NCBI GenBank assembly: GCA_965178125.1
Contig: OZ237764.1
Location: 1-64,000 of the forward strand
Length of the DNA stretch: 64,000 nucleotides
Origin: Bilabrum cf. latius
Taxonomy: Eukaryota
Direction: 5' to 3'
Shown here: piece by piece, positions 3,767 through 64,000 of the stretch
Position numbering within the stretch: the stretch's first letter is position 1
Layout of the letters: every line of letters starts with the position of its first letter
Made by a program: the position numbers and the translations under genes
The notes under the pieces: generated by a model
Seen by the model: only the letters and a program-made list of their open reading frames with translations
Told to the model about the DNA's origin: nothing
Database searches by the model: none

Positions 3767-3777
3767 TTTTATGGTAT

Positions 3778-7451: not shown

Positions 7452-7453
7452 GC

Positions 7454-12251: not shown

Positions 12252-12315
12252 GGGGTATGGGCGCGGTCGGGGATTGTTTGCCAGACACGGCTTGCCGGAC
12301 ATCGTTCGAATCCAA

Positions 12316-12545
12316 CAATGCCCTCACTGAGGCCCACAATGCCCTCACTAGCCAAGAATGCCTCGCTGAGGCCCACAATGGCCTCACTGAGGCCCACAAT
12401 GCCCTCACTGGCCCAGAGATGCGATGCAATTCTGGGCCGGTGAGGCGATTCTGGGGAAGTGAGGCGATTTTGGGCTAGTGAGGCCATTGTAGGGCATTGT
12501 AGGCCATTGTAGGCCAGTGAGGGCATTCTGGGCCAGTGAGGCAAT
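12316..12545. repeat. Degenerate copies of the 19-bp satellite, with an orientation switch near 12425
   Basis: CCTCACTG(A/G)...C-type units at 12316-12418, then TTCTGGGCCAGTGAGGC-type units at 12430-12545. Confidence 0.75.
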
Positions 12546-12567
12546 TAAGAATGAATGTGGAATCCAA

Positions 12568-13538: not shown

Positions 13539-13649
13539 TTGAACCCCGGGACGGGCGGGGGACGGGCCCCGCGGCCGCGCTGGCGGCAGCTTACACGGCG
13601 CGGGTGGGGGTCACGGTCACCGGAGGCAGCTAATGGGTGTGGGTGCAGC

Positions 13650-13770
13650 ATGGCCTCACCAGCCCGGAATGGCCTCACTGGCCCAAAATGCCCTCAAGGG
13701 CCTACAATGGCCTCACTGGCCTACAATGGACTTACTGGTCCAGAATCGCCTCTCTGCCAGTGGCCCAGAA
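13650..13770 (-). repeat. Degenerate 19-bp satellite copies in reverse orientation
   Basis: GGCCTCACTGGCCCAAAAT, GGCCTCACTGGCCTACAAT and CTGGTCCAGAATCGCCTC units. Confidence 0.7.
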
Positions 13771-20679: not shown

Positions 20680-22985
20680 TGAGGCGATTCTGGGCCAGTG
20701 AGGCCATTCTGGGCCATTTTGGGGCAGTGAGGCGCTTCTGGGCCAGTGAGGCGATTCTGGGCCAGTGAGGCCATTCTGGGCCATTTTGGGCCAGTGAGGC
20801 GATTCTGGGCCAGAGAGGCGATTCTGGGCCATTTTGGGCCAGTGAGGCGCTTCTGGGCCAGTGAGGCGATTCTGGGCCAGTGAGGCAATTCTGGGCCATT
20901 TTGGGCCAGTGAGGCGATTCTGGGCCAGAGAGGCGATTCTGGGCCAGTGAGGCGATTCTGGGCCAGGGAGGCGATTCTGGGTCAAAGAGTCGATTCTGGG
21001 CCAGTGAGGCGATTCTGGGCCAGTGAGGCAATTCTGGGCCATTTTGGGCCAGTGAGGCGATTCTGGGCCAGAGAGTCGATTCTGGGCCAGTGAGGCGATT
21101 CTGGGCCAGAGAGTCGATTCTGGGTCAAAGAGTCGATTCTGGGGCAGTGAGGTGATTCTGGGCCAGTGAGGTGATTCTGGGCCAGTGACGCGATTCTGGG
21201 CCAGTGAGGCCATTCTGGGCCATTTTGGGCCAGTGAGGCGCTTCTGGGCCAGTGAGGCGATTCTGGGCCAGTGAGGCAATTCTGGGCCATTTTGGGCCAG
21301 AGAGTCGATTCTGGGCCAGTGAGGCGATTCTGGGCCAGTGAGGCGATTCTGGGCCAGGGAGGCGATTCTGGGTCAAAGAGTCGATTCTGGGCCAGTGAGG
21401 CGATTCTGGGCCAGTGAGGCAATTCTGGGCCATTTTGGGCCAGTGAGGCGATTCTGGGCCAGAGAGTCGATTCTGGGCCAGTGAGGCGATTCTGGGCCAG
21501 TGAGGCGATTCTGGGCCAGTGAGGCGATTCTGGGCCAGAGAGTCGATTCTGGGTCAAAGAGTCGATTCTGGGGCAGTGAGGTGATTCTGGGCCAGTGAGG
21601 TGATTCTGGGCCAGTGACGCGATTCTGGGCCAGTGAGGCGATTCTGGGCCAGAGAGTCGATTCTGGGCCAGAGAGTCGATTCTGGGCCAGTGACGCGATT
21701 CTGGGCCAGTGAGGCCATTCTGGGCCATTTTGGGCCAGTGAGGCGCTTCTGGGCCAGTGAGGCGATTCTGGGCCAGTGAGGCAATTCTGGGCCATTTTGG
21801 GCCAGTGAGGCGATTCTGGGGCAGAGAGTCGATTCTGGGCCAGTGAGGCGATTCTGGGCCAGTGAGGCGATTCTGGGCCAGGGAGGCGATTCTGGGTCAA
21901 AGAGTCGATTCTGGGCCAGTGAGGCGATTCTGGGCCAGTGAGGCAATTCTGGGCCATTTTGGGCCAGTGAGGCGATTCTGGGCCAGAGAGTCGATTCTGG
22001 GCCAGAGAGGCGATTCTGGGCCAGAGAGTCGATTCTGGGTCAAAGAGTCGATTCTGGGGCAGTGAGGTGATTCTGGGCCAGTGAGGTGATTCTGGGCCAG
22101 TGAGGCGATTCTGGGCCAGTGAGGCGATTCTGGGCCAGAGAGTCGATTCTGGGTCAAAGAGTCGATTCTGGGGCAGTGAGGTGATTCTGGGCCAGTGAGG
22201 TGATTCTGGGCCAGTGAGGCGATTCTGGGCCAGTGAGGCGATTCTGGGCCAGAGAGTCGATTCTGGGCCAGAGAGTCGATTCTGGGCCAGTGACGCGATT
22301 CTGGGCCAGTGAGGCCATTCTGGGCCATTTTGGGCCAGTGAGGCGCTTCTGGGCCAGTGAGGCGATTCTGGGCCAGTGAGGCAATTCTGGGCCATTTTGG
22401 GCCAGAGAGTCGATTCTGGGCCAGTGAGGCGATTCTGGGCCAGTGAGGCGATTCTGGGCCAGGGAGGCGATTCTGGGTCAAAGAGTCGATTCTGGGCCAG
22501 TGAGGCGATTCTGGGCCAGTGAGGCAATTCTGGGCCATTTTGGGCCAGTGAGGCGATTCTGGGCCAGAGAGTCGATTCTGGGCCAGTGAGGCGATTCTGG
22601 GCCAGAGAGTCGATTCTGGGTCAAAGAGTCGATTCTGGGGCAGTGAGGTGATTCTGGGCCAGTGAGGTGATTCTGGGCCAGTGAGGCGATTCTGGGCCAG
22701 TGAGGCGATTCTGGGCCAGAGAGTCGATTCTGGGCCAGTGAGGCGATTCTGGGCCAGAGAGTCGATTCTGGGTCAAAGAGTCGATTCTGGGGCAGTGAGG
22801 TGATTCTGGGCCAGTGAGGTGATTCTGGGCCAGTGAGGCGATTCTGGGCCAGTGAGTCGATTCTGGGCCAGGGAGGCCATTCTGGGCCAGAGAGGACAAT
22901 CTGGGCTAGTGGGACCATTTTGGGCCAGTGAGGCGATTCTGGGGCAGTGAGTCGATTCTGGGGCAGTGAGTCAATTCTGGGCTAG
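20680..22985 (+). repeat. 2.3-kb satellite array of a 19-bp unit (GATTCTGGGCCAGTGAGGC) with variant units and higher-order blocks
   Basis: Direct reading; recurring variants GATTCTGGGCCAGAGAGTC, GATTCTGGGTCAAAGAGTC, GATTCTGGGGCAGTGAGGT and short CATTTTGGGCC inserts in repeating order. Confidence 0.97.
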
Positions 22986-23588: not shown

Positions 23589-23591
23589 TTT

Positions 23592-23662
23592 TACGGCGGC
23601 CGGGAATCGAACCCGGGGTGCTTCGATGGCAACGAAGCATTTTACCACTAAACCACCGCCGT
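23592..23662 (-). tRNA. tRNA-Gly (anticodon GCC), intronless, no encoded CCA
   Basis: Folds as acceptor ACGGCGG/CCGCCGT, D arm GTTT-AGTGGTA-AAAT, anticodon arm CTTCG-TTGCCAT-CGAAG, T arm CCGGG-TTCGATT-CCCGG, discriminator A. Confidence 0.93.
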
Positions 23663-23791
23663 ATGTTAAGATCTGTCCCTTAGGTGCATATACAAATCAA
23701 AGTGTGGTATTGTATATCGCTATTTTCGGGAGGGAGTCTTCCCTTCGGCGGTGCGGGCAGCACGCACACATCTTTGCCTTCGCCGGCTGCC

Positions 23792-38354: not shown

Positions 38355-40192
38355 TCAGGAAGACTTCTCGCCCGCGCCCCCCGCCGCGGCTCCGCTGGCG
38401 AAGAGCCCCTCCACCTTGGCGGCGCTGGCCTCGATGGCGGGCACGTCGTGAGTCTTGAACTTCAGCTCGCTGGCCTCAAATCCAGGCATGGGGAATTTCT
38501 GCGCGAATGCGTTCACGTCCGCCCTCAGCTTGTCCACCCCCTCGTCTCCCTCGAGCGCCTTGCCGAAGTCGGCGAGGCGGGGCCCGCTCTTGGTCTGCAA
38601 CTCCAGGCACAGCTGCACAGCGCGGTGCAAGAACTCCGCGATGGCCTCGAAATCCTTCTCCTTCATGCCGCGCGTGGTGAGCGCGGGGGTTCCGATGCGC
38701 ACGCCGCCGGGTGACATGGCAGACCTGTCGCCGTAGATTGCGTTCTTGTTGAGCGTGATGCAGGCCGCGTCGCACAGCTTCTCCATCTTGGACCCGGTCA
38801 GCTTCTGAGGGCGCAGATCCCACAGGACGAGGTGGTTGTCGGTGCCTCCAGTGGCCATGGTGTAGCCCTTGGACACGAGCGCGGCGGCCACTGCCTTGGC
38901 GTTGGCCTTGAGCTGCTGCACGTAAGCCTTGAAGGCAGGGGTCATCGCCTCCTTGAGCTGAGTGGCCACGCCGGCGATCTGGTGCTCGTGGGGTCCTCCC
39001 TGCAGCGCGGGGAACACTGCCATGTTGATGGCCTTCCCGAAGCCCCTGCTGTCCTTGCGGTAGAAGATCATGCCCGCCCTCGGGCCTCGGAGGCTCTTGT
39101 GTGTCGTGGTGGTCACCACGTCGCAGTACTCGAATGGGCTGTCCGCCTCCTCAGTGGCCACCAGACCAGAGATGTGCGCCATGTCGCACAGCAGCAGCGC
39201 CCCGTTGGCATCAGCAATCTCGCGGAACTTCTTGTAGTCCCACTCGCGCGGGTAGGCAGACCCGCCGCACACGATCATGGCGGGCTTGAAGAGAGCAGCC
39301 AGCTCGGCGAGCTTCTCGTAGTCGATGCGCCCGTCCTCGGAGGACACGCGGTAGGGGAGCGACTCGAAGAAGATCGAGGTGGCGCTGATGTTCTTCTTGA
39401 CGCCCTCCTTCTTGCTGTACGTGTAGTATCCGTGCGTGAGGTGGCCTCCTGAGGGCAGGTCCAGGCCCATGATGCGGTCGTGCGGGCGCAGGAGCGCGGT
39501 GTACACTGCAAAGTTTGCGGGCGATCCCGAGTAGGGCTGCACGTTGATGCCCCACTTGCTGGAGTCCAGCCTGTAGGCCTTCAGGGCCCGCGCCTGGCAC
39601 AGCTTCTCGACCTGGTCCACTACTTCGTTTCCACCGTAGTACCGAGCTCCGGGTAGACCTTCGCTATACTTGTTCGTCAGCGCAGATCCCAGGCAGTCCA
39701 TCACAGCACGAGAGGTGAAATTCTGCGACACGGGTGCAGTGATTGCTGGCAGTCAGTCATACGAGTCCTTTGACCAGGAATGAACCAGCCGATTGGCATT
39801 TCAGTGTACTCGATCCAAACTTACCTCAGACGCAATCAATTCCAAGCTGCTCCACTGCCGGGTCTTTTCCCGCTCTGTGATACAAGCGAGTACAACGTTG
39901 GGCGAGGATCCCGCTGGACAATATCGAACCCTAGAGGGTTTCAGCTGCTATAAAGCAGCTCTACAGACACAGGAGGACTCACCAATCAGATCATACATCT
40001 CAGGGTCGTGCTCTTCAAGCGAAACGTTGCCTGGCTGCGAAGGGAGGGGTAAAAGGGACGTTGTAGGCTGGAGCAGGCGTAGGCGACTCTTGGAACATTG
40101 TAAACAAGGAAATTGCGTTGTCTCTAGCTCAATTAGGCTCGACTTACTAGCGACTTTGGCACATCTGATGAGGAGCCAGCTGCTGCTGCCAT
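38355..40192 (-). CDS. SHMT: Serine hydroxymethyltransferase, probably cytosolic; exons 40192-40148, 40034-39983, 39874-39825, 39722-38355
   Basis: Spliced product has [56 protein letters not shown] and GTDNHL; three GT-AG introns keep the frame; ends at TGA. Confidence 0.97.
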
Positions 40193-45553: not shown

Positions 45554-45627
45554 TCTCTGTGGACTTGGATGTTAGCTAACAGAATTGGGTAGAAGAACGT
45601 GATGCATACGCAATCGTTTTTCTCGTC

Positions 45628-47163
45628 TCAGTGCAGCACGAATAGTCGCGGGAACGCAGCAATGGCTGCCTCGACCAGGTCCATGCCATCCACTGCAGCC
45701 CCACCGGGCAGGAGCTCTGATTGCGCTCCCGCAGCGACCTCACGACCTACCTCCGACATTCCCCTAGCTCCTGCTGCGTACGGTGCGACTGCTTGCACTA
45801 TCTAACCCGCTGCGACGGAGCACGTGGGCAGTACTTGGCGCGTTAGATATGCCCCCTGCTTGCCGCACGGCCCTATATGCTTTGCCGAGCTACCTGTTCC
45901 CGAATCGGGATAAGAGCCAAGCCGTGGAGAAGTAGCATAGTCCCGCGTACTCAGTACTGAGTCATCAAGGGGGGGGCACATCAGCGGCTTCGGCTCCCGT
46001 GCAAGCAGCACGCCCATCGCCAGTGCCCACTGCAGGGCATCCACAGCCTCTGTCGCGCTGAGCACATACGGATCTATCCCACTTGCCCCGGGCTAAGCAG
46101 CTGAACCAGACAGCCTCCACGGTGACTTGATCAGGCCACCCAGAGTTTCGCATCCGCTGCCTAGCACGCCTAGCAAAGACGCGAGGCGCACCCCAGCTGG
46201 CAAGTCCTACGCCCACACACTGGAGTCTAGCTGCAGCGGGAGTGCAGCAGACAGTCGCCGCCTAGACGGAACAAATCGTGTGTGGCTACCGACGGGGGCG
46301 CTAAGGAGAGACCCAAAGCCGTGCATGTCCAACCAGCCCGCCGCAGCCAGCACGTGGGCGAGGGGGACTCCAGCCAACGCCGCGGTGCGCTGCAGAGATA
46401 TCGTAGGGTGTGCTCGCGCGAGAACAAGCACTGCTGTGCGGCCAGCCGACCCTGACAGTGCTTGAAGCGCTGGCAATGTGGCGTCAATCACATCTCTGTG
46501 CGTGCCCGAGTGGTTGGGCAACGGAGCCGTCCGTGTGTCGTCCTGTCCCCTTCGAGCCTGAGCGAGCCTGACTCGCAGAGCAAGGGCTTGGTGCGGCTGC
46601 GGGGCAGAGGCACCGAATAACAGCCCCAAGGGTCTTTGCCGCACGCTCCCTGCGTCGGCTGTGGCGAGGGGCATTCTCGAAGAGGGCGCGCATGCCATCC
46701 GAAGCACCGCGAGCAGGGGCTCCAGCCCAAGAGCGACGGCGGCTCGCTGGTCCCTGCGGCTTGCAAACATGCCAAGCGAGCCGGCACGCGCGAGCCGTTC
46801 GTTGTGTACGGAGAAGTTAGTGGTTGCCTCGCGCAAGTGTCCCTCGTGCAAGAAGCCCGCCTCACCGTGACCTGTAGCGAGCTGCATGGCAGGGCTAGGG
46901 TCGCCTCGAGCGGATGCGACCGCTTCCTGGCTCGCCATGCAGGCCGAGCACCGCCAAGTGGCCCATCTGACATGAGACAATGACAAGGTACTCATAGAAA
47001 CGCTGTCGATGTTGGGTGCACCGGCAGTGCGCGCTGCATGACCAGCAGTGTACTTCCCAGAAGCCAAGATGTCCAGAGATGACGTCACAGCCACGGACCG
47101 CACCGCACCAGAGCTGCTCGAAGACGGCCGGTCACTGGCTAGATGACTTAACTAGTTTGGCAT
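45628..47163 (-). CDS. Hypothetical protein with weak resemblance to NPRL3/Npr3 (GATOR1); start uncertain
   Basis: Same-frame ORFs 46207..47103 and 45802..46065 are linked through TAG; TGA at 45628-30; PHQALAL...PTISLQRTAALAGVPLAHVLAAAGWL recalls the Npr3 PYHALLL...LQQLA...VFQLAAHL pattern. Confidence 0.45.
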
Positions 47164-47700
47164 GCCACTACTACCTTCTTCTGGTTTGACCCGTATTCGA
47201 TCGCGGTCACTGCCTCGTCCAGATCCTTGCTCCCATGGGGGGGTGCTTGCTTGATCTGCTCTGGCCACCGGCACGCCTACCCGCGGGCTCTACCCCGGCT
47301 CTAAGAACCCGCGCGACTACACATTTGATGTGCACTGAATGAAAACTTGCGAATCTGCAGTGAATTCAAGAATTCCTCCAGAGAGCCTTGGTCGGGCGGG
47401 AAATAGAGCCTAGAGCGCCCTCATAGATGGAGCCTCCAGCGGAACCAGAATCCATGCCATATCAGACTCATTGAACACAAAGCGTGCTACGATTCTGCGG
47501 TATATCGGGGAGAAATTAGGAGCACTATCTTGCTGAGATTTGAAGTCACACGTTCATGCAGCATTTTGGTCTCTAACAGTCGTCCCTTCAAGGCATGGTC
47601 AAGAGAAACTACTACCCAAATCATTTCACGACCGATATCATGGCTTCAATTGATTGCTGTCTTTTGTGAGGCTGCCCGCTTGACCACGCTGCGGAACCGA

Positions 47701-50700
47701 ATGGCGCGGCGCCATGAAACGGGCAAGACAGGTAATCCATGCTAGACAGCTAGTCTTTTTATCAACCACCACATGATTAGCATACTTATACCATGAAAAG
47801 TGTTACAGGAAGCGACCATGCGATTAAAGCAAAGGGGCTGTGGGCATTGCAGACTCTTTCGAACGTCGCGTCCGCCGCTGAGCAACGCGGATTGCGTTTG
47901 CAGCTATCTGTGGTCGAGACTGCTATGGTGGATGATGGAATGCCATCTACAATACTATCATCACTGGAGGACGGTGGATTCCGTTCTTATGATTTAGCTC
48001 GGTCTGGAGCTGTGCCTGGGGCTGCCGCCACCGGTGCAGCCGAGTTGCAAAGACGAGTGGAACTCGTCATGCACCGCTTTGATGTATTCCTGAAACGAGT
48101 TGGAGCTCCATGTCACGACGATGCTGATGCACCATTCTGTTTTGCGTGGCGCACAAGTGGGGATGTAAAGTCGCTGTCGCGAGCCGAAGCGCAGCGGTTG
48201 TTGCTAGATTCCAGCTGGATGCGAGGTGCCGCCGCGCTGTAGCCAATACCAATTACACGATAGGTATGTTCAGCACTGTATGAACGCCGTCGCACTCTAG
48301 TAGGCACTCGTGTAGCTCCGGGTGCATCGCTGGTTGGAAGCGATCCAGCAATCGACGAGGAGGTAGCGGCAGCGGCTGGGGGCAGCTAGGACGGCGGCAG
48401 AGAAGCCCATGAGGCTGCAGCCAGGCTCGCTAAATTACTTCAAATTGCCCATGCAGAAGGAATGGTTGGGACATCATCTAGGGGAGTGCATCCGTGGCTG
48501 TCCCAGCCCGGAGGCGAGGGGCAGGCAGCATCCAGTTGGATCGTCACTGCGGGACCGGGGGCGCCCCCCCTGGCCGGACTGGACGATAGAACCGCAAAAC
48601 GCGAGGCTGGAGGTACGCGTGTGGGTGCATCAGGCAGGGCGAGTAGGCGGCGGAGCAGTGCTGGTTTGGAAAGGGGCGCGGACAGCACCGAGGGAGACGA
48701 CTCCGGTGATGAGTTGACTGCAGCGGGGTAGGGCAAGCGGTGCACTCGAGTGAGGGTGCTGCGGCTGCTTGCGCGCTTTGCAAGGACCCCTGATGGTGTA
48801 CTGAGGCTCACAGGGGTGGCAGATGCCGCCCTGCAGCACATGCAGATGCCGGCCCCCGTGCGGGTGGTGATGGATCCTGCCTTGGCGCGGGCACAGGCAG
48901 CCGAGGAGGCGGTGCGGGCGGCGGATGAGGCCGAGGTGGCCTTCAGGGAACAGCTGAGGCTCGGTTAGGAGAGGGGAGTGGGCTTGGCGGAATCATTCGC
49001 GCATTTTGATCCGACGGGCCGGGGGTGGGTGGACGACGAGGCGCTTGAGGAGGGGCTGCGGCAGCTCGGGCTGGAGCTGCACCCCATGTCCATGAGGCTG
49101 CTGGGCGAGAGGTTCATCCGAAATGCACGGGGTCGCATCACCCTCAAGTCTTTTCTGACCTTCGCACAGGCCGCTACCACTTCCTAGGACACAGGGGCCG
49201 GTCTAGTGGACTCGTCTGGCGGAGCGGTAGGGCAGCCACCCCCAGTCGCACCCGGCGTGGCTGGCGAGCGGCCGTTACCTCGTGACGGCACTGAAACCCT
49301 ACTTGATGCTCGGAACGATGCGAGTGAGGGAATTGGGGCAAGAGATCCCCGAGAGCTGGCCGCTACTGTGAGGCTGCCAGTGGGCGGCAGCGATGCGGCC
49401 GAAGGAGGGAGCACCGAGGGGGGCGCACAGGCTGGTGGTAGCACTGTGGAAGGCGATGACATCAATGATGCGGCTTCCCAGGCGCGCTCCTCAAGCGTTG
49501 TTCGAGTCCTGCAAGATGCCCGCCGCGAGGCCAGCGCGGGGGTGTTTGCTGGTGACGAGCAGCTGGCGGAGCTGCAGGCTGTGGTCCGCGTGCCATACGC
49601 GAGTGGTGATGCGTGGCAAGGTCAGTCCAAGGCAGCGCGGCAAGCTGCTCTGTCTGCGCACCCTGCGACTGTGCTGCAAGGCGAGTTGGCGGAGGAGCAT
49701 GCCAAGATGACCCGGGAGAGACGGGCGCGGTTGGCCAAGCACAGCAACGCTCGGAGCGGGCTGGGCCCCACCAAGCGTGAGCTCGGGCTGCTGGGTCCCT
49801 CTGAGGACGGCCGCCATCGCGATCTGGAGGGAGTGCTGGTGGATGCGATGCAGAAGCTCGATGCAGAGGATCCCGACGATGCGTTTCACCGGAGCAGCAT
49901 AGGGAGGAGGAACAGGCGCCTTGCGCGGGCAGCTGGACACTAGCGGCTAGACGGGGGTGGCACGTCCAGGGGTGCTGTGACCGAGTCCAAGCATGCATCT
50001 CGCGCTACAAACTCAAAATCAAGGAAAGAACGTAGCACTAAGGGGAGGCGGGGAAGGCACGCGCTGCCACCAGGTATACGTCCGCCCGTGCCCCTGCAGG
50101 AGGCCATGCCGTTGCACCCTATACGACCGAAACCCGATACCACAGTGGTGTCGGTCCGGGCGAAACCAGAGGAACCCCGTGGATTCGGCATTGTGGCACC
50201 AGCTTCCGAGGGAAGCGGGGGCAGCGATCTGTCGGACGAAAAGAACCGCCGAGGCGGAGTTGCAGGGATCCAACGAGCGGGCAGTGTTTCCAACTTGCCA
50301 TCCAGAACACCTACTGAGGCCGCCATGGCAATGATTGCCCGCACGAAGGATTTAACGAAAGGTATCGAGCTCGGTATGCAGACTGCGTGGGGCGAGGGGG
50401 GCGACAGCAGCGATTGGCGGTAGGCTCAGAAGTATGCTGGGCCTGCCAGGGGAAGGCTAAGCAAAGCACGGGGCAACAGGCGTCGCAGGCGCGGCCGAGG
50501 TGCGGCTGCTGATCTCGGGAAGTCGCCGTTTGCCGCATCCCTCCCGGCATGGGCAAGAGGCCCATCGAAGCGCAACGTGAGCGAAACCATGGCCACGCTG
50601 TCGCAGTCAGCTCGGGCGCATGTGGAGGAGGTCGCCGACGAGGCGGAGAAGTCCTTGCAGGCGCGACGGAGACGGCCCGGAGGTGGGAGGCAGCTTGCAA

Positions 50701-53700
50701 GGAACAGGCGCGAAGTGGTGCGAGAATTGCTGGACGGCAAGCATCCAGTTGCAACCAAAGATCGCAGGAGACGGTCTCGCATGGACGATGAGTTGAAGCG
50801 GGTCGGAGCTGAGGTGAGCCAGCAGGTTGAGGCAGCTCAAAGGGCAGAGGCCTCAAGGCAAGGGCTCGGAGACAACGATATGCAGCCCTTCCTGGTGTCG
50901 GGTCGCCTCGGGGATGGAGATCGAGACGATAGCGGTGACACGACGCGCCTCATGCTCACAACAACAAATCCGCTTCCAGTCGATGCACGGGTGCCTGCAG
51001 GAGCTGACGCACTTATTGCATACGGAGCTAGCCCGAGCAATGCCCGAGTATTCATGCGTGGCGTAAGCGTTGATGGCCAGCCACTACCTCGCGGGCGCGC
51101 TCCCCACGCTGCTGATAGGCTCCCGTACTAGCGGTTTCGTTATGATGAGGGAACAGAGCTTCTTTACCACGTCGTTCGAGGACCAGAGTATCGGGTCACT
51201 CTGGACGGAGCCATCGATGCCAAGTATGCCGAGGACGCCCCGAGGAAATCGGGTCTAGGAGCCATGTACCGGTGCGTGACAGGCGCGCCGCGGTATCCAG
51301 GGGGTCGAGGGGCTTCTCCGTATGCGAGTGGTAGGCCGGTTGACCTCATGTACGTGCCTGGCATGCACGAAGACATGCATGGCATCGAATCGCAGCTTCG
51401 GTCGCTTGCATGCAAGCTGCCAGGGTGCCGCGTGCTGGTGATGCACCTGCCTGGAATGGCTGGAACGACGTGGGACGAGTGGCCGGACTATTTGGACGCA
51501 AGCAAAGCGATTGAAGAGGTGGGATCAACTGCCGAGAGGTATGATGCCCTCCTGGAGCGATAGATGGCGGCTCGGGGGTCCGAATCCAAGGCGAGCAGCA
51601 GAGACCGCCAAACCGCCAAACCTGGTCAACAGAAGGGAGTGGGCGACAATCCATCTCGCAAACGGTCGTATCGCCCTCTAACCCCGCGGTTTCATAGTCT
51701 TTGTCTGCACGCACTCGTCCAGCACCTGAGGACCACGGGTGAGTGGGGGCCCAAGTCCGTGTAGGATCCACGCACTGATGCGTTCGAGAAGACTAGGGGT
51801 CGAATTGGCCGAGACGTAGTCATCTGTGCATCTGGAACCAGTACGCCTGTCGCTAATGCTTATGTGGGCGAGCACGTGTGCAAGCGCTCTGTGGACCAGC
51901 AGGACAGAATCATGGCGTCTGCATTGCGGTGCAACGTGCTAATCAACCCATTCGCTCACGTCAACAAGTCCCTGGCGCGGGTCCTGGAGGGCGTGGAAGA
52001 CTCGCATGCGCCTCTCGCAGAGCTTGCAAAGCTACCACAATAGCAACCTAGGCGCTCTTCTGTTGCGAGCATCGATTCGACTAGTCCTGCTGCATTGAAG
52101 GCAGCAGTTGGAAGGCGATCGTCGGCCGGCGGGCGGCGGCCATCGATTGGTGGCGCTTCGGCAGCCACGGGAGCCACCGACATGGGCTCCGTTGCGACTC
52201 GCAGGACAGCTAGACGTGCTAGCGTAGTATCCAAGAAGCGCATCAAACGAGAGGTCGCTATGAGGAAGCGACTTGGGGTTACCTTTGAGCAGCATCCGTA
52301 CTACCGACCGGTGAAGGAGTCTAACCACGACAGTGCAGACGAGTCTGACAGCAGTGATGGGGGCGAGGACGAGGATAGGAATGGGGCGGCAGGTGATGCA
52401 GACTTGGCAGCATACGACTTTGACGCAGCTGTAAGGCGGTTGGAGCAGACCCAGAGCAAGGAGAGCAGTGCTTCTCGTCAAGCTGACAAGGAGGTGGATT
52501 GGGTCCGGTCTGCTCCGGACGCCTCTGGCTTGTTCGGCGGTCCAAATGGCAGCAGCCATTCGAGTAGCAAACGAGGCTAGTCAGCGGAGAAGCTATTGGC
52601 GCTTCGGCCTATCAGGGCGCATGCTATCAGGCAACTGTCTCGCATGCTCCTGGGCCCTTCATTTGTGTCCGTGATGGGCGAGCGCATCGCTCTCAAGGAG
52701 CTCTTCCGAAGGAATCCACCGCTGGGTTACGGTGATCCGTTCTTAGATGATGGTCTCGCTGCCATGGCACGCGGGCTTAGACGAACGCGGGATCAGCGAC
52801 AGACCCTCAAGTAGCTTCCAATTCCAGTCCTTGTGCTGGCGGGCAGTGAGGACGCATTCGTGGTACCACTCCATGCGTACAACATCGCTCGCAATCGCGG
52901 GTTGCAAGGCGGAGGGAGTGGGCGTGTGAACGATGAGGATAGCGGTGGCTTCAATCTAGGTGAGTTCCTTCAGGTGGCTGGCTAGCCCCCCAGGCGGTCG
53001 TGCCTGTCGATGTACCTCTTGGACAACGATGGTGCATCGCAGGGTGCGGTCGAGGGGTCTGTCAGCGGCAGTCCAGACACATCCAAAGTTGACGAACAAG
53101 GAGATGCGCTAGATAGACTTGAGTAGACGCAGAAAAAGCTTGCTAGCGAGTCTGGGGGTGGTGTTGATGGAGGCACGAGGGTTGGCACCGCCGCGATTCG
53201 AGACAGTGACTTTGATCTGTACTCGTCTGAGCATGTTGGAGGTGGTATCACTGGCACGCTCTACCCCACTCACGTTGCCTGGCTGAAGGCTGGACATTGC
53301 TTACTATTGGAGAGACCGGGATTCTGCATGAGGGTGCTCGAGGCAGCGCTGGTTGGACACAACCAAGACAGGCCCAGCACGCCCCCGCCACGCGGTTCAC
53401 TGTTGACTGCAGAAGAACGAACCGCGATTGGAATTCTGGGTCCAGAGGACAGCAGCGTGGGTTATCTTGGCGAGAAGCATGACGGCGCAGAACCAGATGT
53501 TTCCGTGTCTCAGGCACCTAGGCGCGCGTATGGGACTGAAGTTTACGGGCAGACCACGGATCGCTTTCTGTCAGACACTCAAGTAGAGGCTGCTGGTACC
53601 CGTGGAATACTCAAGGGTACCAGAAGGGATACCCCTGCAGGCACACCCTTCAGTCTCGCGGAGGATGACATGACTTGGGAGTCTGGCCAGGCTGGGCAAT

Positions 53701-56700
53701 CGGTGCGTTTCGGCTCCACGGCAGGTGCAGCATAGTACACCTAGTCTTCGGTTGGCTCGGCTCAAAGGCACAACGATTTTGGTATCGCTGGTGCCGATGA
53801 GCAGGTAAAATCTGGAACTGCAGCTGGGAATTCATCTGAAGCACAGAGTAACGAGGACGACCCTGCCGTTGCCCGAGTGCGGGCTGAGCTTCGGGCCCGC
53901 GGACTGTCGGATGAGGGCACGGAGTTCGACTTGCTGGCTCGGCTGGAAGAGGCGCTGGACAGCGAGATGCAGACTGCTGCCACCAGGACCGACAAGGCCA
54001 GGAAGGACAGGGTGTCTCGGCTGCAGAAGACGAAGCGTATTGAACTTGAGGCGCAGGCGCGCTCGAAAGAGTCGACGCGTTAGGAAAAGCAGCTGCTGGG
54101 CACAGAGGCTATGCAGGCGAAACAGGCCATGGACCGACTGCACCGGGGAGTGGAAAACGAGCAAGAGGCCCACGAGCGAAGACTTATGGCTGTCGAAGAC
54201 TCGATAGCTCGGGATGTTGCTGCCTAGCTAGCTGCACGGGAGCGTCGCGAGTAGGAAGACAAGGAGTAGCAGGAGCGTTTCGCGGCTGCACGTGCTAGTG
54301 AATAGGAGTCTGGTGGCTAGCTGGTTGTGTTTGACCCACTCGGGGATGCCGACCAAGCCAAGGCGTTCGAGCGCAGGCGGCAACTGCGGCGCGCAATGGA
54401 GCTCAAGAGCGAGAGGGCCGTTCGTGCGCTGGAGGTCAGGCAGCGAGTGGGTGGGCGCATGCTTCAGCTGCGGGGCGAGGACCTGGGCTACGCAATGACG
54501 GACGCCGAGGAAGAGGTAGAGGTGGAGGCTCGGGCGGAGCGAGACAGAGCTATGGGCAGACTCGAGTCATGGCTTGCTGAAGAAGAGGCGAAAGAAGCAG
54601 GCAGCGGCGATAGCGTCCCCGAGGAAGAGCGCGGAATGGATCGCAAGGGAAGGCGGGCGCTCAAGGTGCTCCGGAGGCAGGCACGGCTGCACGACACGGT
54701 ACTTAAGCTTGCAGCTGGATCTGACCGCCTGATGCAGCACTGCCAGTAGCTGCGCTTCAAACGGCGAGGCGTAGTGCGCCGATGGAAGCTTTTGTTCGCT
54801 CGTCAGAAGGAGCAGCAAGATTAGACGCGACGCAGGCAGCGTGAGGTGTCTGCATGTGACCGCGCACTTGCACTTGCCTAGAAAGAAAAAGATGCAGTCG
54901 AAGCTAGCCTGTAGTAGGGAGGTGGGAACCGGGTATTGTAGCAATAGATGCTGCAAACGTCTTCTGCAGAAATCGAGCAGCTGATCAAGTATAAGGACGA
55001 GCAGCGGGCGTTCGTCGACGCTTTGGTCGACAAAGGTAAGCTCCTGCAGCTCGAGCTGGAGGACTCGACCGCCGCGGCGCAAATGCTCGTCAACTCGAGC
55101 AATGCCAAAGAGGGCGCTCTTACCCGCATGCGGATTGTGATGAGCAAGCTTGTCAGATAGCGGCGGATTGCTCGTCGTGATGCGCAGGAGAAGCAAGACT
55201 CTGCCATGCAAGAAGCTGCGCAGCTCGTTCGCAGCTTGGCTTCCCTGAAAGCCCGGAAGCAGGCGATGCGGTCGGAGCTGAGCAGATGCAAGAAGGAGAA
55301 GCAATCAATGTGGATCGACACGTCCATCTGGCAGCGGACAGGCCAGCGTATCCGTCGCTCTGAACTCAAGGAATACCTTCGCAGAGAGCTCAAGAAGGTT
55401 CGCAATGACATTGGAATGCAGACCCGTGACCTGCGGCACAATCGTGCTGTTGCCCTGGAATGTGATGCGGTGCTCTCTGCCGCTCAGGAAGACGTGTCTA
55501 TGCTAATCAGCCGTTTGCGGCGTGTTGTGGAATGTATCCGTGCCGGCCCCTCTGGTCCACTGCGACTGCCGAGTGCTCTGGAGATGCAGGCCTCTGCCAG
55601 TGGTGCATCGGGCGGTGGGGGGGAGCAGGACCTTCTCGACGAGCTGGAGGCCCAGGTGGCGGGGGGGCCCGGCACCATGGGCAGCACCATTGGCGCTAAA
55701 TAGACTGTTCCTCGCGCTACCCCATACGGCCCGACGCTCTCGGTTGAAGACCAGGAGTAGCAGTGGACGGCCAAGTACAGGTCTAGCTGGGAGGAAGTCG
55801 ACTTGCTGCTGCATGAAGTCCAGAGCAGTGGGGAGAGAATCAGTGAGTTCGGGGCCTGGTATGCTAAAGTGAAGGACGCGCCCCCACCTGTGCCGACCGA
55901 TGAAGCAGCCGGGGGAGGTGCAGGCGGCGAACTGACGGCGGAGGTGCAGTAGAGCTTGCTCAAGGCTTCTGGTGAGGAAGCAGGCGATGCTGGCCCGGAG
56001 CAAAGCGAGGAGGAGGCCGAATAGGACGCCAGCATGTTGAGTAGACCTTCCACTGGGCTGATGAGCTCTACGTCCTAGGCGCTAGTTGACCGGTCGGCAT
56101 CGGCACATGCCGAAACCCTGGTAGGCTTCAGCAGGGGCCCACAGGGTGTCCCGGTTGTCGTGCAAGACCAAACCAAGGTCGCAGCCGCTACACGGTGGAA
56201 GCCGGCTCTCGACCGTACTTTGGAAGAGAAGAGGTGGGTGGCAATCGACAAGCGCATGATGGGTTAGTTCTATGGTAACCTCACCGAGGAAGACCAGCAG
56301 GCATACGCGAGCGATCCTGCTTACCAGTGCCACCTCCCGAGGGATCTGCTGCTTAGGATCGCCGCGTTGCCGTGTTCTCCTGGGATTGCATCGGCATTCA
56401 TTTCGACCGAGGCCCAGATGGAGGCCCATGGGCTCATCACAAAATTCACACTGGGCCAAGGGGAAGACCGAGAGCACTTTCTCGACCAGCTGTCCGGAGC
56501 CAGGGCAATGGCAATGGCAGCAGTGGCCCGGGGATTCGTGGCCCGATCCAAGATGCCACGGTTTAGGAGTGAGGAGGAAAAGGAATGGGTGGCAGCCGAT
56601 CGTGTCCTACGGCCGCACTTATACATTGGCGAAGAAAATGAGCCTGGCGAAGACCGCGAATCCGACGCTGGCGAGCCTGGCACCGATGTGTCTGGGCCTG

Positions 56701-59700
56701 CAGTCAACATGGTGCGGGAAGGCATCCAGGATTTTGTGGAGTCTGGTGGCCCTCTCATTCTCGAGGTCGCAAACAGCGACGATGAGACAGAGGGCGCTAA
56801 GAACCTAGTGGAAGGAGATGGAGATGGTATTAGCGATAGCGGCTCGGAAGAGGATGGTCTACATGCGAGCGGTGCGGCTGCAGCCGATGGAACGAAAGGA
56901 GCTGCTCGAAGGCGAAGCGAGTCCGGACAGCAGGTGCTTTCCGGTGGAACGCGCAGACCCACTGGACGGGCAATGTTCAAGCGCCTGAGTAACTTTAAAG
57001 AGAAGCAGGACTTGTAGGCCGAGGCTGCCAAACGCAAGCTTGCTCGAAGCAAGAAACGGAAAGCTGCATTTGAGTTCTTCGAGGCCACAGATGAGGCCCA
57101 GGGCAGAGGAAATATTGCCGAGCAGACCTTTTCAAGCATAGATGATGTAAGGAGGCGCGAGTTTTTGATGAGGCCCCCTGGTGGAGCACCCCTCGCGTAC
57201 TCGCGAGAACAGCTGCTTGAGCTGCTGCGGACGCCCCCTGGCCAGCTGAAGTCAAAAAGCGAGCAGCGGCTACAGATGCTTCTAATGGCATATGGTAGTG
57301 ATGGCGGGCGGGCCATTTTCGAGATGGCGTCACGGTGCCACTATGCAGTCGTGCGAGGGCTAGCTGAGGTGGCCGAGGCGATGCAGGCTGTGCAGGAACG
57401 GAGGCTGCCGCTGCAGTTGGCAGACTACGCCGAAGAAATGTGCATTGCCGATGCCGATGGGTCGCGCCTTAACGTGGCAGCTGTCGCTATGTAGGCGTGC
57501 CAAGGGCTGGTGCTCGTGCGGTCTAGACACTCGGCAACGCTGCTGTCTGTGCATGGTGCCACCGTGGAGGCCGGTCAGGTCGCAGAGCACTCCTTCGTGG
57601 TACCTGGATCGATCGCAGATTGCGTGGGCCACGGTCCCAGAGGATGGGGCGGGAGCCGGGGCAATGCTACCGCGCGACGTGGGTATGGACACCAGGGCAT
57701 CCGGAGCGTGTTTGGGGTGTCCCTGGACGAGGTACCCGCCGAGCACGCTGCTAGCTTGATCGAAGCTGCAGCTGCTGCTGGGGTCCATGGCACAAACGGC
57801 GCCCGCGCGGAAGGGTCGCAAACGGCCATGCCGGCGTGGTAGGGCAGCATCAATGCTGGTTTAAGCATGGCTTCAGGCACCACACCCTTCGCGGACACGG
57901 ACGAGGTGCCAGGCTTGGGTCGAGTGACGTGGGCCGAGAACTCGGTGAATCGGCAACAGCAGCGAAGTGCCCTGGCTCGCCTGGAGCTGGCCCGCACCAA
58001 AGCGCTGGAGGGCCTGGGCTTGCCAGTGTCCCGCAGCAGAAGGCGGGAAGAGATGCAGCGGAAGGTGGCAGAGCAGGAGGCTGCCATTGAGGAGGCAAAG
58101 CGCGTGAGCCCAGCGGGTTGGGTCCAGTCATCTGTAGCGAGCGCGCGTGGAGAGTCTGCTGATGCAGCGAATGCAGTGGATCGTACAGGCAGCAGCACTT
58201 CCGAGCGCGACAAGTTTGACAGGGACGTTTAGAATGCAAGTCGGGTCAGGGGATTCCTTCGACCTAGTGATATGGATGGGACAGGCTTGGCGGCGCTTCA
58301 GGCAGCCCGTCCAATTGGGAGCACTGGCGATAAGCTGAAGGAAATGGCCAGGTAGGCCGGGTCCAGGCCCGCTGAAGCTGGGGTAGGGGCGACTTCGGGA
58401 GCTGTCAACGCTCTGCACATCACTGGGTCTGCTCCATCGGGATAGGACACCGCTAGAAATAGCTCCATGGACGCTCCCCGTGCCACAACCGCAGAAGAGC
58501 AGCCTCTTGCAATGCCCACGAGTGCCCTGGAGGATGCTCGCTGGGAGAAGCAGCGCTTGGCGGAAGAGGCTCAGCGTAGTGCGCGCGAGCGAGCTGGTAC
58601 CCCTGGAACCCATGATAGTGCCGCACCATCCTAGGGGTTCGGCTAGGGCACGCCCGAAGAAGAGGACGGCGAGGAGGTTGACCCAGCACTCAGGCCCCGC
58701 ACCAGATATGAGCACGAGACGGGTGTACCTGGTGTGTTGCCTCAAGCGCTTGATATATCTGTGACCATCACATTCCATGGGGAGTTCCTGCGGACAGAGT
58801 ATGTCCCAGCCCGGCTGTAGGGAGTGCTGTACAGGGAGCCAATGTGCGGGGAAGTGGCCACTGACCTGAGGGAGCCGGTGGCATATCTGGGCGAAGACCA
58901 CGCCGACGAGCTGGACAAAATGCACGGCGATTCAATACTGATAAGGCAAGGGAATCCCATGGAAGACATGCCAGGGGGACCCGCTGCCGTGTATACCGCG
59001 CGACAACGTGGGCGACCACCCGTGCATCCCAACATGTCCTCGCATCTTGCACCAAGCGCCTAGTCCAGCCAGGCAGAGCGTGGCAGTGCGGTCAAGACCC
59101 CTCGGGAGAGGCATGCTCGGTTAGAAGTGCCGCCGTAGGAGAGATTAGCAGGATAGATGTGGCCAAAGCTTCGAATGGGAGGGCCTGTGAGCGTTGGAGT
59201 TGTGCCTCTATCTGGAGAAGCCACACAGCTATTGCGTGCCGTGGCCGGCCCGTCCAACCACGAGACGAAGGCTTACGACCCATCGAAAGGGGCGCAAGGC
59301 GCCAGCGTGCTCGACGCGAGTAGCCAAGGGCCCGATTGGGGAGGAGCTGCCTCGCGCGCCCAGGCATCTTCGGCATAGCACGGCCTCGCACTTGCAGCCA
59401 GGAAAGCAGGGCCCGCCGAGCTTGGTGTAGCCAACGGACAGCTGGGAGCCTCGAATCAAATCAGTAGCAGTGCTGTCTACACTGGCCCGAGGGTCGATGT
59501 GGCAGGTACCTCGCTACATGACCTCCAGGTGAGCGGGGCCAGGACTGGCAGCATCGCCACAACAATCGTGACCCCCGAGCAGCTGCCTCCACTCGCTCGG
59601 CCCGTGCCGCGACTGCCAGGGGTGCCATCTGACCAAGTAGTGGCGCAAATGCGTTGCCCAGTAGGCTGGTCGTCCTGGTAGGAGTGCAAACCAAACACAA

Positions 59701-62700
59701 CCGGCAGCATCGGGAGGTTGGTGATCCGACACCGCCCTCTGACTCTGCCCGTGATGCCGGGCAAGTACACGGTGGTGCTCAAGGGGGTCACCAAGGCGAA
59801 CTACTCTGTGACTGTCTCGTGCCGGCTGGCCTACGCCGCCCGCGATGTGGTTGAGGGCTGCGTGCTGAGCTCTGACAAGAAGGAGAGACGACTACCTGCA
59901 AGCCGAAAGGAACTGGAAAGCATTGCCAGCAGCTACCGGCTTGGTGCCAGGAAGCGGCATATTGTCCGACAGCTCATCAACCAAGTCAATCGCAGAATGA
60001 CTGCCAATGTACAACAGCAAAGCTCACTGCGAGAGGCGCTTGACAAAGGCCGGGTGCTTGTGCGGGATCTAGGCAGTGATGACGAGGCAGACTCAAGCTC
60101 AGACGAAAGTGACTCGTCCGATGACGGACTGCGTGCACGGGCGGATAGTGATGCCAGCAGTGATACGAGCAGTATTGCCAGTGGGTCATCTGCTGGGACC
60201 AGCGACAGCGGGTCCTCGCGCGGATCGTCTGGCACGGGAAGTGATGCGTCCTCTGCCGCTTCTGGAAGCACAGGCAGCAGCGGCAGCTCGGGCTCAGGCT
60301 CATCGAGCGGTTCCGATGCGACTGGGTCGGGGGCAGGTAGTCAATCGGGCAAGCCGCTCACTGCGGAGGACGTGCGCCGGAAGATCGAGATGAATCGCAT
60401 CAAACAGGAGCGCAGACGCATGCAGTTGGCTGATGTTACGGAGAGTATGCGGGGCCGCATCGTGCGCCGCATCTAGAAGCTGGAGGAGAGGTTTGCCACG
60501 CTGGCGCGCTCCCTTGGCACGCGCTCGGACGAGATGCGGCAGATCGAGGAGGGACTCATGGTGCTGCGAGAGGCGAGACATGACCGATAGGCCGAGGTGG
60601 AGGCGCTCGTCTCTGGCATTCGCGAGTTCCGCAGGTACGTGCCTGCTGCTGCTGCTGCCCTTCGAATCGACGCGAGCGGTTCAGTGGCGATGCGCAAGGA
60701 GAGACGCAGGGCCGCAATGGAGCGACTGGGGTTGACGGAGCTACTAGGGCGCGCCCCTGCCTCTTCTATTGAAGAGCAAGTGCAGGAGACGGTCAGCAGG
60801 TCGCAATCGATAGCAAGCGGGAAACGATCATCGCAGGGAGGCAAGAGTCTAGGGGGACTGGCAGCTGCAGAGCAAGCTACCCTGCAGCAGCAATCCAAGG
60901 GCGATGCCCGCGCGCTCGTTCTCGCCCACACCACGCAAGGGCAGCTGGCAGTGCAGCAGCAGAACAGAGATGATATTCTGGAGCGGTTGCGACCATCGCC
61001 ATCCGACGTGGAGTACGTGCGGCTTGGCCCCTGCGTGATGCAGTACTTGGTGCGGCAGGACGAATCCACCATGTCGAACCCAGCTGTGACTCCGGCGATG
61101 GTGGTCCGTCGGAAGCCCATCAGCGAGCTCACCTATGAGGAGGCGGTCTGGTTGGCAATGGACCGGGTGATGCACCCGGAGGAGCACGAGCTGGATGACC
61201 AGGGACAGGCAGAAGATGACGAGCTGGCAGGCTTGGTGATGCTGGCCCCTCCCAACGGTGAATCGCTCAGCGCCGGACCCGTCCGTAGGCCACAGTCCCG
61301 GCAGCCCACTCAGGCTGGTGGGCTAGACTAGAAACCCCGCGGTATCCTCGCCCGGATTCAGCGGGATAAGGCAGCCAAAGGTAAAGCTAAGATCGCACAA
61401 GATGCAATCTAGCAGCTGGATTCCGTGTATGACGCGGGTGGCGGTCCACCTCCTGTGCCCAAAGACGAGGCGATATCAGAGGGGCAAGGTGGAGATGGTC
61501 CGGCTTCCGGTGCTGGAGCATCTCCGGATGCAGCTCCGCAGGCACGAACCAAGGACGAGCTGAATCCCGTGGAACCAGCCGTAGTAGGGGGAGCCAAGGG
61601 ATAGGGGCTTCGTGGAACGGCCGCTGATTTGTACGGGCAAGCCAATTAGGGTCGCATTTCCAAGGAGGGTCGTCTTGCGGGGGCCACTTCCAGCGCAGAG
61701 GCTGACTCTGGTGGCGCGGCTGGTAGCGCAGCGCCCAGTAGCAGAACGGAGGCCCGCAGAGATATGAAACTCGTGGGCAGAAACCCGAGCGCCAACGCCC
61801 CGGTGCAGGTGCTGGACCCTCATCTTCAGACGAGCACCACGCTCACTGGACATTTGGGTGCAATCCGCCTGCTGGAAGTGACGGGCGGGTAGATGCCGCC
61901 GTGTCCGTTCAGCAGAGTTGAATTACGGCGCATCCTCACGGCGCCCGTCACAACGCTGGCCCCAGTCGAGCGGGAGGCCAGGGACCTCCTCAACAAGTAC
62001 CACGACAGGCCCCCGCCCCGTGCCGAGGACGCGACACTTGGGCTGCAGCAGGGGCCACAGGGAAGAAGACTAGGCAGTGCAGCCTCGAGCCGCGTGAATC
62101 TCCGAACGCCAAAGACAGCTGCCATCACTACGCGACAGCAAGCGGCTGGCGGCACAGCGGGGGCTATTTTGCCGTACGGTCAGCCGCAAGGCGGCGGTGA
62201 GCACCCAGATGGGGTCGTGCTGACACCCGCCCAAGAGGCTATTCGACAACGCAACCTGCAGCTGGAGTCCAGGCAATCTGAGCAGCGATCCGATGGTGGC
62301 GCCGGCATGCAGTACCACCGTGCTGGGCCAGAATTTGCCGTGGTGCGGTCGGCGGTGCCTATCCCCCGGCACGCGCCCGCCAAGCTTAAGCACCTGCTTG
62401 CAGTCCGCGCCGTTGCCCTCACCACCCGCTGGGAGGCTTTTCTCGAGAAACACCGCAGCGAGACATCCAAGACGGACACCAAGGGCCGCAAACTACAAGG
62501 AGGCGCTGCTTGGGGCGGTTCCACGGAGGTGCAGGGGATTAATGTGATGGAGCTGTCGGACGTCGACCAGCGGGCGAGAGACCTTCTGGATGAATTAGAC
62601 AGGGCAAACGGGTGTGCCAAGCCAACGATGGACTCGGCCGTGCTCTATGGTGTGGAGCAGCGGTACCAGACGATCACCCTTCGTGCAGAGCTCGAGAAGG

Positions 62701-64000
62701 AGCTCGACCTAGTGCTGCAACGGCAAGTGTTGGAGAGGGAGTAGGTCGAGACGGCACTGCAGCTGGAAATTGCAGACACAAACGCAGCCAAGATCAAGAA
62801 GCGGGCTGAGCAGCAGGCCAAGCGGCTCGAGGCAGCCCGCGCAGAGGTCCTAAAGCAGATGAAAGACGAGGACGAGGGCAGGGTCAAGGCAGTGGCTGGC
62901 GAGCTGGAGGCCATGAATTCGACGTCTGGTGGACTGCTTTCGGACGACGAGCGCGCCAGGAATGAGGGTATCCAAATTGCCATCGCAAGGGCCAAGGCAG
63001 AACGCGCGAAACTCAGGGGACACGACGCCAGCCTGGCGATGGAGGAGAAGGAGGTGGAGAACAGGGCTAAGGCCGAAGAGCGCGCCATCAAGGAGCAGCT
63101 GGCTCTGGATCTGGCTGGGGTGCGAGGGGGTGCGCAGGAAGACGAGCAGGACCCAATCCAGGAAATCGGGGGGCTGGCCAAGTGGGGTGCCCCCGACAAG
63201 CCGCTTACCCCGCGCCGAGCCAGGGAAATGCGCATTCGCAAGCGGGAGCAGGCAGAGGAGCAGCGGCTGCAGGAGCAGTTGATGGAGGATGGAGACGAGA
63301 TGGACTCCTAGCAGAGAGCCATGGTTAGGGGCAAGTTGAAGACCATCCGAGACCGCAGGCGAGCCCAGGCTTAGACGATGCTGCGCAAACGCAAAGAAGG
63401 AGCGGATGGTGGCGCGGGGGGCAATGGCAGCGAAGGCACGCCGCACGACGACGATGAGGAAGAAGAGTCCAAGCGTGTCGTGCTGCCGCCCTGGCAGTCC
63501 ACTGAGGACGTGGTGGGGCTCAAGGCGCGGCAGGAGGAGCTCGAGCAGGAGCTGCTACGAGTGAGGACGCTGCCCGAGGAGATCGAGGTCGTGGAGACAC
63601 ACGTCCTTCTCTCGGTGCTCCGAGGAGGTCGTGCAAGAGTGACCGTCCAGGATGCAATCATGGAGTTGGCCACCGAGGTGTAGGACGTCCGAAATCGGCT
63701 GCGGCTAGTGGATCTGGACCGGGAGCTTCACGCGGCCTATTCGTCCAAGGAGGCCAGCATCGAGACGACGGCCATGCACGGATACAAACAGACCGCCTGG
63801 AGGCTCGACGCTATCGCTGCACTGGAGCGGGACAGCAACCGCATCGTGGCACGGCAGGTGGCGCTAGGACTGGTGGACGATATTCTCGAGTGGATGCTGG
63901 AGGGCTGGTACTTTGGGGAGAGGGAGTCCGCCGCTGCCGTGTCTGGGTTCGTGCCCTCTCTGCAGAAAGACAGGCCCCTGCGGCCGTACGAGTCTGCCTC
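47701..64000 (+). CDS. Giant protein of more than 5,400 aa, running off the window: EF-hand-like, alpha/beta-hydrolase-like, SAP-like and long coiled-coil regions; possible first intron 47732-47808
   Basis: 28 listed ORFs from 47793 to 63683 are in one frame and all end in TAG; the gaps I translated contain only more TAG, no TAA or TGA; motifs FAHFDPTGRGWVD, PVLVLAGSEDAFV...AGHCLLLERP, VRAELRARGLSDEGTEFDLLARL. Confidence 0.85.

Follow-up and report, generated by a model that had tools for sequence, protein, structure and literature searches.

A frame of 5,421 codons on contig OZ237764.1 is very probably part of one giant gene in which TAG encodes glutamine

Results

The locus and its open frame

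This study examined a 64,000-nucleotide stretch of DNA (hereafter the window; positions 1 to 64,000 of the forward strand of contig OZ237764.1, assembly GCA_965178125.1, filed under Bilabrum cf. latius) and, at its right-hand end, a giant protein-coding gene. A sequence-only reading of the same DNA had proposed that positions 47701 to 64000 hold a hidden frame of more than 16 kb, a single giant gene that the standard genetic code breaks up at TAG codons. Our analysis makes it very probable that the DNA from 47793 to past position 64000 forms the bulk of a single gene without introns and that its 63 TAG are ordinary glutamine (Gln) codons through reassignment of UAG. The features of the frame are as follows.

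47793..63998, plus strand: coding part of the giant gene, lacking its 3' end; 5,402 codons, with 63 in-frame TAG very probably read as Gln
54912..54947, plus strand: cluster of four TAG (TAG-TAG at 54912-54917 and TAG-CAA-TAG at 54939-54947) in a stretch rich in Q, E and K

The third plus-strand frame of 47701-64000 contains 65 TAG, with a single TGA at 47715 and a single TAA at 47733. Both of the latter lie upstream of an open stretch of 5,421 codons (47736-63998) that holds 65 TAG and neither of the other two stop codons, and that is still open at the end of the window. The remaining two plus-strand frames of the same interval carry 140 and 203 stops (TGA/TAG/TAA 80/46/14 and 133/47/23, respectively), and the second-longest frame free of TGA and TAA that overlaps the region has 495 codons. 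Because TGA and TAA together make up approximately 2% of the codons in the off-frames, a chance origin of a 5,421-codon frame is excluded. A coding signal was also present in the guanine-plus-cytosine (GC) content, which was higher at codon position 1 than at position 2 in all 18 segments of 900 nt.

These counts bear out the earlier figure of more than 5,400 codons open apart from TAG, and no in-frame TGA or TAA had been missed. The TAG cluster lies exactly where it had been placed. The earlier manual count of "over 50" TAG was correct in that they are many, but the exact number is 65, or 63 from the ATG at 47793. Likewise, the frame is shattered under the standard code as had been claimed, but into 66 stop-to-stop pieces rather than the "28+" reported; the longest of these has 283 amino acids, and 35, 22, and 7 of them reach at least 60, 100, and 200 amino acids, respectively.

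The ATG at 47793 (context ACCATGA) is the first ATG within a transcript-like contig described below, and it is the likely start because that contig begins at 47755, after the ATG at 47739. An upstream open reading frame (ORF) of seven codons (ATG...TGA) lies in another frame at 47773..47796 on the plus strand, and its TGA overlaps the likely start ATG (CCATGA). The coding part beyond the window comprises at most 564 further codons.

Homologues and sequencing contigs

With the final 1,200 residues of the translation as query, an exhaustive HMMER search returned 254 proteins at E<=0.001, including giants of 3,617-7,169 residues. Local BLASTP aligned the translation with one of these giants, P0003 (5,904 residues), in 12 collinear blocks that place residues 107-5420 of the ORF on residues 78-5317 of the subject, and the block order was likewise kept in P0002, P0004, P0006, P0008, P0009, P0011, and P0154. 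Seven homologues continue for 431-937 residues past the aligned end. Word-index searches for homologues of similar length gave no match, which we regard as an effect of the method because the exhaustive HMMER search gave 254 matches.

Contigs of public sequencing runs, among them X1, X5, and X6, were compared with the window. In X1, the whole region lies within one genomic contig, whereas X5 provides separate contigs with ends at gene borders (45599; 45622-47646; 47755 onward). The last of these, a contig of 17,939 bases, matches 47755-64000 over its record positions 1-16246 with 0 mismatches and 0 gaps, and it extends 1,693 bases past the end of the window. A joint that skips 83 bases (47495-47577) was found in X5 and X6 but not in the X1 genomic contig. 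We read X5 and X6 as RNA because both skip a GT..AG intron that X1 retains. On this basis, the mRNA of the giant gene would measure approximately 17.9 kb and encode a protein of at most approximately 5,970 residues. The collinear homology to single giant proteins and the one transcript-like contig uphold the proposal of a single giant gene; in place of several separate transcripts, one 17,939-base contig covers 47755-64000.

Meaning of TAG

Fragments of relatives at least 82% identical to the giant protein carry Gln at 8 of 9 TAG positions (residues 1132, 1276, 1343, 1436, 4247, 4285, 4623, and 4638). Six of the 12 relatives' fragments examined end one residue before a TAG of the giant gene (5 positions: 3094, 4285, 4532, 4719, and 5213), which indicates that the relatives carry TAG there and share the code. 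Distant homologues align with 41 of the 65 TAG positions, and at these positions Gln had the best position-weighted log-likelihood (-108.3), followed by Lys (-118.1) and Thr (-120.2). Gln made up a share of 0.187 at these TAG positions, near the self-conservation of true Gln codons (0.229). The earlier proposal that TAG is read as sense, as in translation table 15, is thus sustained by Gln at the TAG positions of relatives.

Among the Gln-type codons of the giant gene are 63 TAG, 172 CAG, and 68 CAA. If TAA were used like TAG (TAG/CAG 63/172, with 68 CAA), approximately 25 would be expected in the 5,402 codons, and none was observed. Across the window, 105 in-frame TAG are distributed over 8 ORFs; of 10 ORFs, TGA closes 9 and TAA the other. 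TGA is therefore the normal stop codon, and TAA does not serve as a sense codon; termination by TAA rests on only 1 of the 10 ORF ends. TAG also occurs inside conserved domains of neighbouring genes: two of the 15 TAG in an EZH2-like ORF lie between the NH and ELFFDY motifs of its SET domain, and a C2-WW ORF has 6 TAG, one of them within a C2 domain. Because the serine hydroxymethyltransferase (SHMT) gene of the window has neither TAG nor CAA (13 CAG), TAG appears to act like a non-preferred Gln codon. The window thus exhibits in-frame TAG in conserved coding sequence, Gln at the TAG positions of relatives, and TAA outside the sense codons, the features of the table 15 type. By analogy with other eukaryotes in which UAG is reassigned, decoding would need a tRNA-Gln with the anticodon CUA, and the release factor eRF1 would no longer recognise UAG.

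Several points weigh against a single intron-free gene with TAG as Gln. The program label for X5 is "RNA? (probably DNA)", none of the listed runs that match the window is recorded as RNA, and contigs from Logan are no proof of one continuous molecule. The stop codon, the 3' end, and the final <=564 codons fall outside the window. One close relative (>=82% identical) has Glu at TAG position 1615, fragments of 60-77% identity have Q, H, A, A, and N at five TAG positions (Gln at 1 of 5), and one TAG of the SET domain aligns with the Pro of the EZH2 "PN". No tRNA with the anticodon CUA was found in the window by ARAGORN or Rfam, the only tRNA there being Gly-GCC. A Pfam search over all 5,421 residues placed no family at its cut-off; because none reaches it, any function assigned to the protein rests on weak motifs and homologues.

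Four other explanations were weighed. The code could be context-dependent, with TAG as sense inside genes and as a stop at true gene ends, which we consider improbable. Such codes have been described for some ciliates and trypanosomatids, according to PMC5304391, and here the SET gene has a TAG 22 codons upstream of its TGA. However, no ORF among the 10 depends on TAG for its end (9 TGA, 1 TAA), and the 105 in-frame TAG are spread over 8 ORFs. A sense codon for another residue (Lys, Glu, or other) would accommodate the second rank of Lys in the likelihood test, the Glu at position 1615, and the H, A, A, and N at 4 of 5 TAG positions in the less similar fragments. Nevertheless, the 8 of 9 Gln matches in relatives >=82% identical and the closeness of 0.187 to 0.229 make another residue very unlikely.

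It is scarcely credible that the region consists of several short genes in a row, or of a decayed pseudogene to be read with the standard code, as the public gene calls of close relatives (short fragments of 62-536 amino acids) might suggest; conservation crosses the TAG codons (41 of the 65 positions lie within blocks aligned to homologues), no TGA or TAA interrupts 5,421 codons, a single contig spans the whole frame, and TAG is found within conserved domains of other genes too. An origin in a giant virus with TAG as Gln, rather than in cellular DNA, can be set aside with similar confidence given the (CCCTAA)147 telomere and subtelomeric repeat at 6.6-7.9 kb, the cellular-type neighbours (EZH2-like SET with CXC, SHMT, C2-WW, TBC, and teneurin-like EGF), and the spliceosomal intron in a neighbour gene. 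The protein clusters that resemble the homologues are also labelled eukaryotic, which serves as a lead only. A single intron-free gene with TAG as Gln is accordingly the reading followed below.

Protein regions and domains

The regions recognized along the giant protein are listed below.

48984..49166, plus strand: EF-hand-pair-like block, residues 417-477; Pfam EF-hand_7 (PF13499), below its cut-off
51303..53390, plus strand: two conserved blocks, residues 1190-1433 and 1624-1885, with a low-complexity insert between them; candidate "hydrolase-like" region
53871..53957, plus strand: SAP-like motif; SAP (PF02037) at E 0.011 and 15.8 bits, below the cut-off of 23.9
56166..56627, plus strand: conserved block, residues 2811-2964; 38-52% identity to the giant homologues, with two copies of a W-x-A-x-D-R/K motif
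57144..57626, plus strand: conserved block, residues 3137-3297; 38-50% identity to P0002, P0003, P0004, P0005, P0006, P0008, P0009, and P0154
59463..60074, plus strand: conserved block, residues 3910-4113; 36-46% identity to P0002, P0003, P0004, P0005, P0006, P0008, P0009, P0011, and P0154
63489..63998, plus strand: conserved domain of about 170 residues, residues 5252-5421, with the motif LEWMLEGWYFGERES; common to many smaller proteins

Sequence searches of the Protein Data Bank (PDB) with both halves of the protein gave no match. The EF-hand-like region that had been predicted near 49.0 kb was weakly supported. EF-hand_7 scored E 9e-4 and 19.9 bits on a 100-residue piece and 14.4 bits on a long piece, short of its cut-off of 30. 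However, the block aligns with P0011, P0003, P0006, P0009, and P0004 at E 4e-14 to 3e-5, and a profile search of the PDB with the homologous block of the relatives found EF-hand proteins (E 5.9e-5). These findings make residues 417-477 EF-hand-like and probably degenerate.

The two other folds predicted from the letters fared less well. The SAP-like motif near 53.9 kb stayed below threshold, as listed; the identity to P0003 in this region (query 2057-2104) is 62.5%. The alpha/beta-hydrolase-like fold placed at 51.1-53.3 kb was not confirmed. Residues 1190-1885 are conserved in P0003, P0004, P0006, and P0011, and the region gave no Pfam match up to E 10. The profile of alignment A3, which is visibly scrambled in inserts, retrieved no hydrolase among the best 60 of 92 PDB matches, only EF-hand proteins, and the AlphaFold2 (AF2) model had a mean predicted local distance difference test (pLDDT) score of 41 (5 sequences), too poor for a fold search. 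The candidate nucleophile elbow reads ASGTST here and GSGMGG, GSGLGG, GCGMGG, or GLGHGA in relatives, none with the Ser of G-x-S-x-G; judged by these residues, even if the fold were right the protein is not an active serine hydrolase.

Three copies of a motif E-E-K/A-x-W-V/L-A-x-D-R/K occur at residues 2834, 2951, and 4472 (window positions approximately 56235, 56586, and 61149), and the motif is also seen in the tails of homologues (e.g., R-W-V-A-I in P0003). It may be a repeated binding motif.

The domain of approximately 170 residues is the region covered by most of the 254 HMMER matches. Twelve columns are invariant in alignment A1 of 40 sequences (R, E, G, E, L, D, H, M, G, W, F, and G), and the giant protein has 12 of 12. 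Its AF2 model (mean pLDDT 86.4) contains three long helices and two small hairpins. Foldseek against the PDB found nothing at E<=0.001, the best matches being Mical bMERB (E 0.29) and prefoldin beta (E 0.35, probability 0.89); in the VIA wide comparison, the best Z scores were 8.5 (bMERB) and 7.7 (prefoldin), within noise for helical models. A literature search found no paper containing the motif WMLEGW. The sequence-only reading had taken DILEWMLEGWYFGERES for the C-terminus, which was wrong because the gene continues past the end of the window.

Protein Atlas matches below 0.9 were not used as evidence (a eukaryotic/Chlorophyta cluster for P0012 at 0.82 and a PPC-like cluster for a piece of the block at 59.7-60.2 kb at 0.86).

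The giant-protein family

The giant gene belongs, by sequence, to a giant-protein family that has no name. Its giant members, P0002-P0011 (3,617-7,169 amino acids), share collinear blocks with 24-62% identity to the giant protein, and smaller proteins (e.g., P0012, 857 amino acids) carry the same C-terminal module. The domain of about 170 residues with its LEWMLEGW-FGE motif is common to the giant protein and the family. Unlike the giant gene, the family homologues are uninterrupted under the standard code, and many have a C-x-A-C...P-C motif ahead of the domain that the giant protein does not possess. The homologues are annotated solely as "hypothetical protein"; the earlier statement that no named family could be assigned was therefore accurate, homologues existing in a family that is nameless.

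In homologues, the domain is followed by a conserved hydrophobic stretch (TLKFGLF..LMYFR), and IQ motifs lie further downstream in 8 of 12 of them (E<=0.001). In P0011 and P0006, the IQ motif is 175-310 residues past the conserved domain; the equivalent part of the giant gene lies beyond the window, and Pfam detected no IQ motif (PF00612) in the 5,421 in-window residues. The family profile aligns with FAP305, a protein of the central apparatus of Chlamydomonas (7n6g; E 5.6e-5), in the IQ region only, not in the conserved domain, and it also touches Sp17, again through the IQ region alone. The hydrolase-like region presumably recalls inactive alpha/beta-hydrolases of the NDRG type in its order of hydrophobic strands and in Gly in place of the nucleophile Ser (GSGMGG, in relatives), a likeness that we take as a lead; it differs from NDRG-like hydrolases in that the region yielded neither a Pfam or PDB sequence match nor a usable model.

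As predicted from sequence, the protein would consist of conserved blocks strung along low-complexity, helix-prone spacers, and, to judge from the homologues, its tail past the window would carry IQ (calmodulin-binding) motifs. The likeliest role, proposed with low confidence, is that of a structural scaffold of great length under the control of calcium and of calmodulin-like light chains.

Window layout and neighbouring genes

The remaining features of the window are listed below, from left to right.

1-6567: low-GC DNA (approximately 44-51%) with uninterrupted minus-strand ORFs of bacterial (Bacteroidota) type
6566-7451: telomere repeat, CCCTAA in 147.7 copies, directly abutting the bacterial piece
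7454-7911: subtelomeric repeat, 53-bp unit, 8.6 copies
about 7912-7951: TTAGGG-like repeats in reverse orientation, approximately 40 nt
23591-23663, minus strand: tRNA-Gly (GCC), the sole RNA gene detected in the window by ARAGORN and Rfam
38355-39752, minus strand: SHMT gene; 13 Gln codons, all CAG, with no TAG and no CAA
40547-45553, plus strand: EZH2-like histone methyltransferase with CXC and SET; a single frame of 1,668 codons with 15 in-frame TAG
45622..47646, minus strand: neighbour gene of the giant gene, with one 83-nt intron
47495-47577, minus strand: 83-nt GT..AG intron (GTTAGA...CCGCAG) near the 5' end of that neighbour gene; the frame is open across the joint
47647..47754: 108-nt spacer that separates the giant gene from its divergent neighbour; not in X5 contigs, covered by the X1 genomic contig

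An ORF in the bacterial piece (1541-3781) contains a Por_Secre_tail domain (type IX secretion sorting; E 1.2e-13). Beyond the telomere and subtelomere, the DNA has approximately 60% GC and carries eukaryotic genes, the cellular-type genes seen being C2-WW, teneurin-like EGF, TBC, SHMT, and EZH2-like SET/CXC. The window after the bacterial piece is the left end of a eukaryotic chromosome, and the join of bacterial DNA (1-6567) to the telomere is probably a misassembly, a chimera with a co-cultured Bacteroidota bacterium.

The EZH2-like ORF matches human EZH2 at E 5.5e-32, which suggests a PRC2-type system in the organism. In the SHMT gene, which has a strong codon bias, TAG seems to be avoided. 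The 83-nt intron is the sole intron observed in the part of the window compared with the run contigs. The X5 contigs with convergent 3' ends (45599/45622) are separated by a spacer of 22 nt, and the 108-nt spacer on the other side of the neighbour gene is presumed to be a shared promoter region; with spacers of 22 and 108 nt, the genome is very compact.

Two further repeats were seen: a GC-rich tandem array at 12567-13538 (129-bp unit, 7.5 copies, 97% matches) and a minisatellite at 20680-22982 with a 19-bp unit (TGAGGCGATTCTGGGCCAG; approximately 128 copies, 81% matches). Long "ORFs" with weak IGFL matches within the minisatellite are repeat artefacts.

Discussion

Significance

The standard code truncates or shatters every TAG-carrying gene of this organism, and public collections hold the relatives of the giant gene only as fragments of 62-536 residues. 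Proteome, orthology, or phylogenomic work on the organism therefore requires table 15. A conserved, intron-free protein of approximately 6,000 residues with a new domain is tractable for localisation and calmodulin-binding tests.

Comparison with known codes and lineages

Ciliate telomere repeats are of the C4A2/C4A4 type, and the chromosome end found here (CCCTAA) differs from that type. Reassignment of UAG alone to Gln is known from very few lineages; PMC11687900 and PMC5304391 name Iotanema spirale, Protocruzia tuzeti, and two phyllopharyngean ciliate lineages. The window and the UAG-only lineages have in common that TAG is Gln, that TGA acts as a terminator, and that TAA lies outside the sense codons. 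In Iotanema the main stop is UAA (PMC5304391), whereas TGA ends 9 of 10 ORFs in the window.

Outside the ciliates, the aphelid Amoeboaphelidium protococcarum resembles the present case in being grown with algae and bacteria and in its reported stop-to-Gln recoding. Amoeboaphelidium genomes have 40.5% and 39.9% GC (Table 1 of PMC10608142), compared with approximately 60% in the window DNA. We rejected an Amoeboaphelidium identity on the grounds of its GC content of approximately 40% and its reported use of both TAA and TAG for Gln; here, 0 TAA occur in 5,402 codons. The eukaryote of the window fits none of the UAG-only Gln lineages that we found in print, and within the searched collection of literature, outside which further papers may exist, we found no described GC-rich, TGA-terminating lineage with UAG as Gln.

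The code belongs to a type already known (table 15), and the lineage may be new. We tentatively propose, at somewhat less than even confidence, an undescribed GC-rich non-ciliate lineage in which UAG alone has passed to Gln and UGA is the main stop, whose relatives, down to approximately 60-77% identity in this fast-evolving protein, share the code (their gene fragments break at the same TAG positions), and whose giant gene would found a new, widely distributed protist family of EF-hand/IQ scaffolds marked by a new helical domain. A case that is GC-rich and terminates with TGA would put to the test the ideas that UAA and UAG are coupled and that AT pressure drives code change; if the lineage is indeed new and non-ciliate, the rarest class of stop reassignment would gain one more origin, outside the ciliates.

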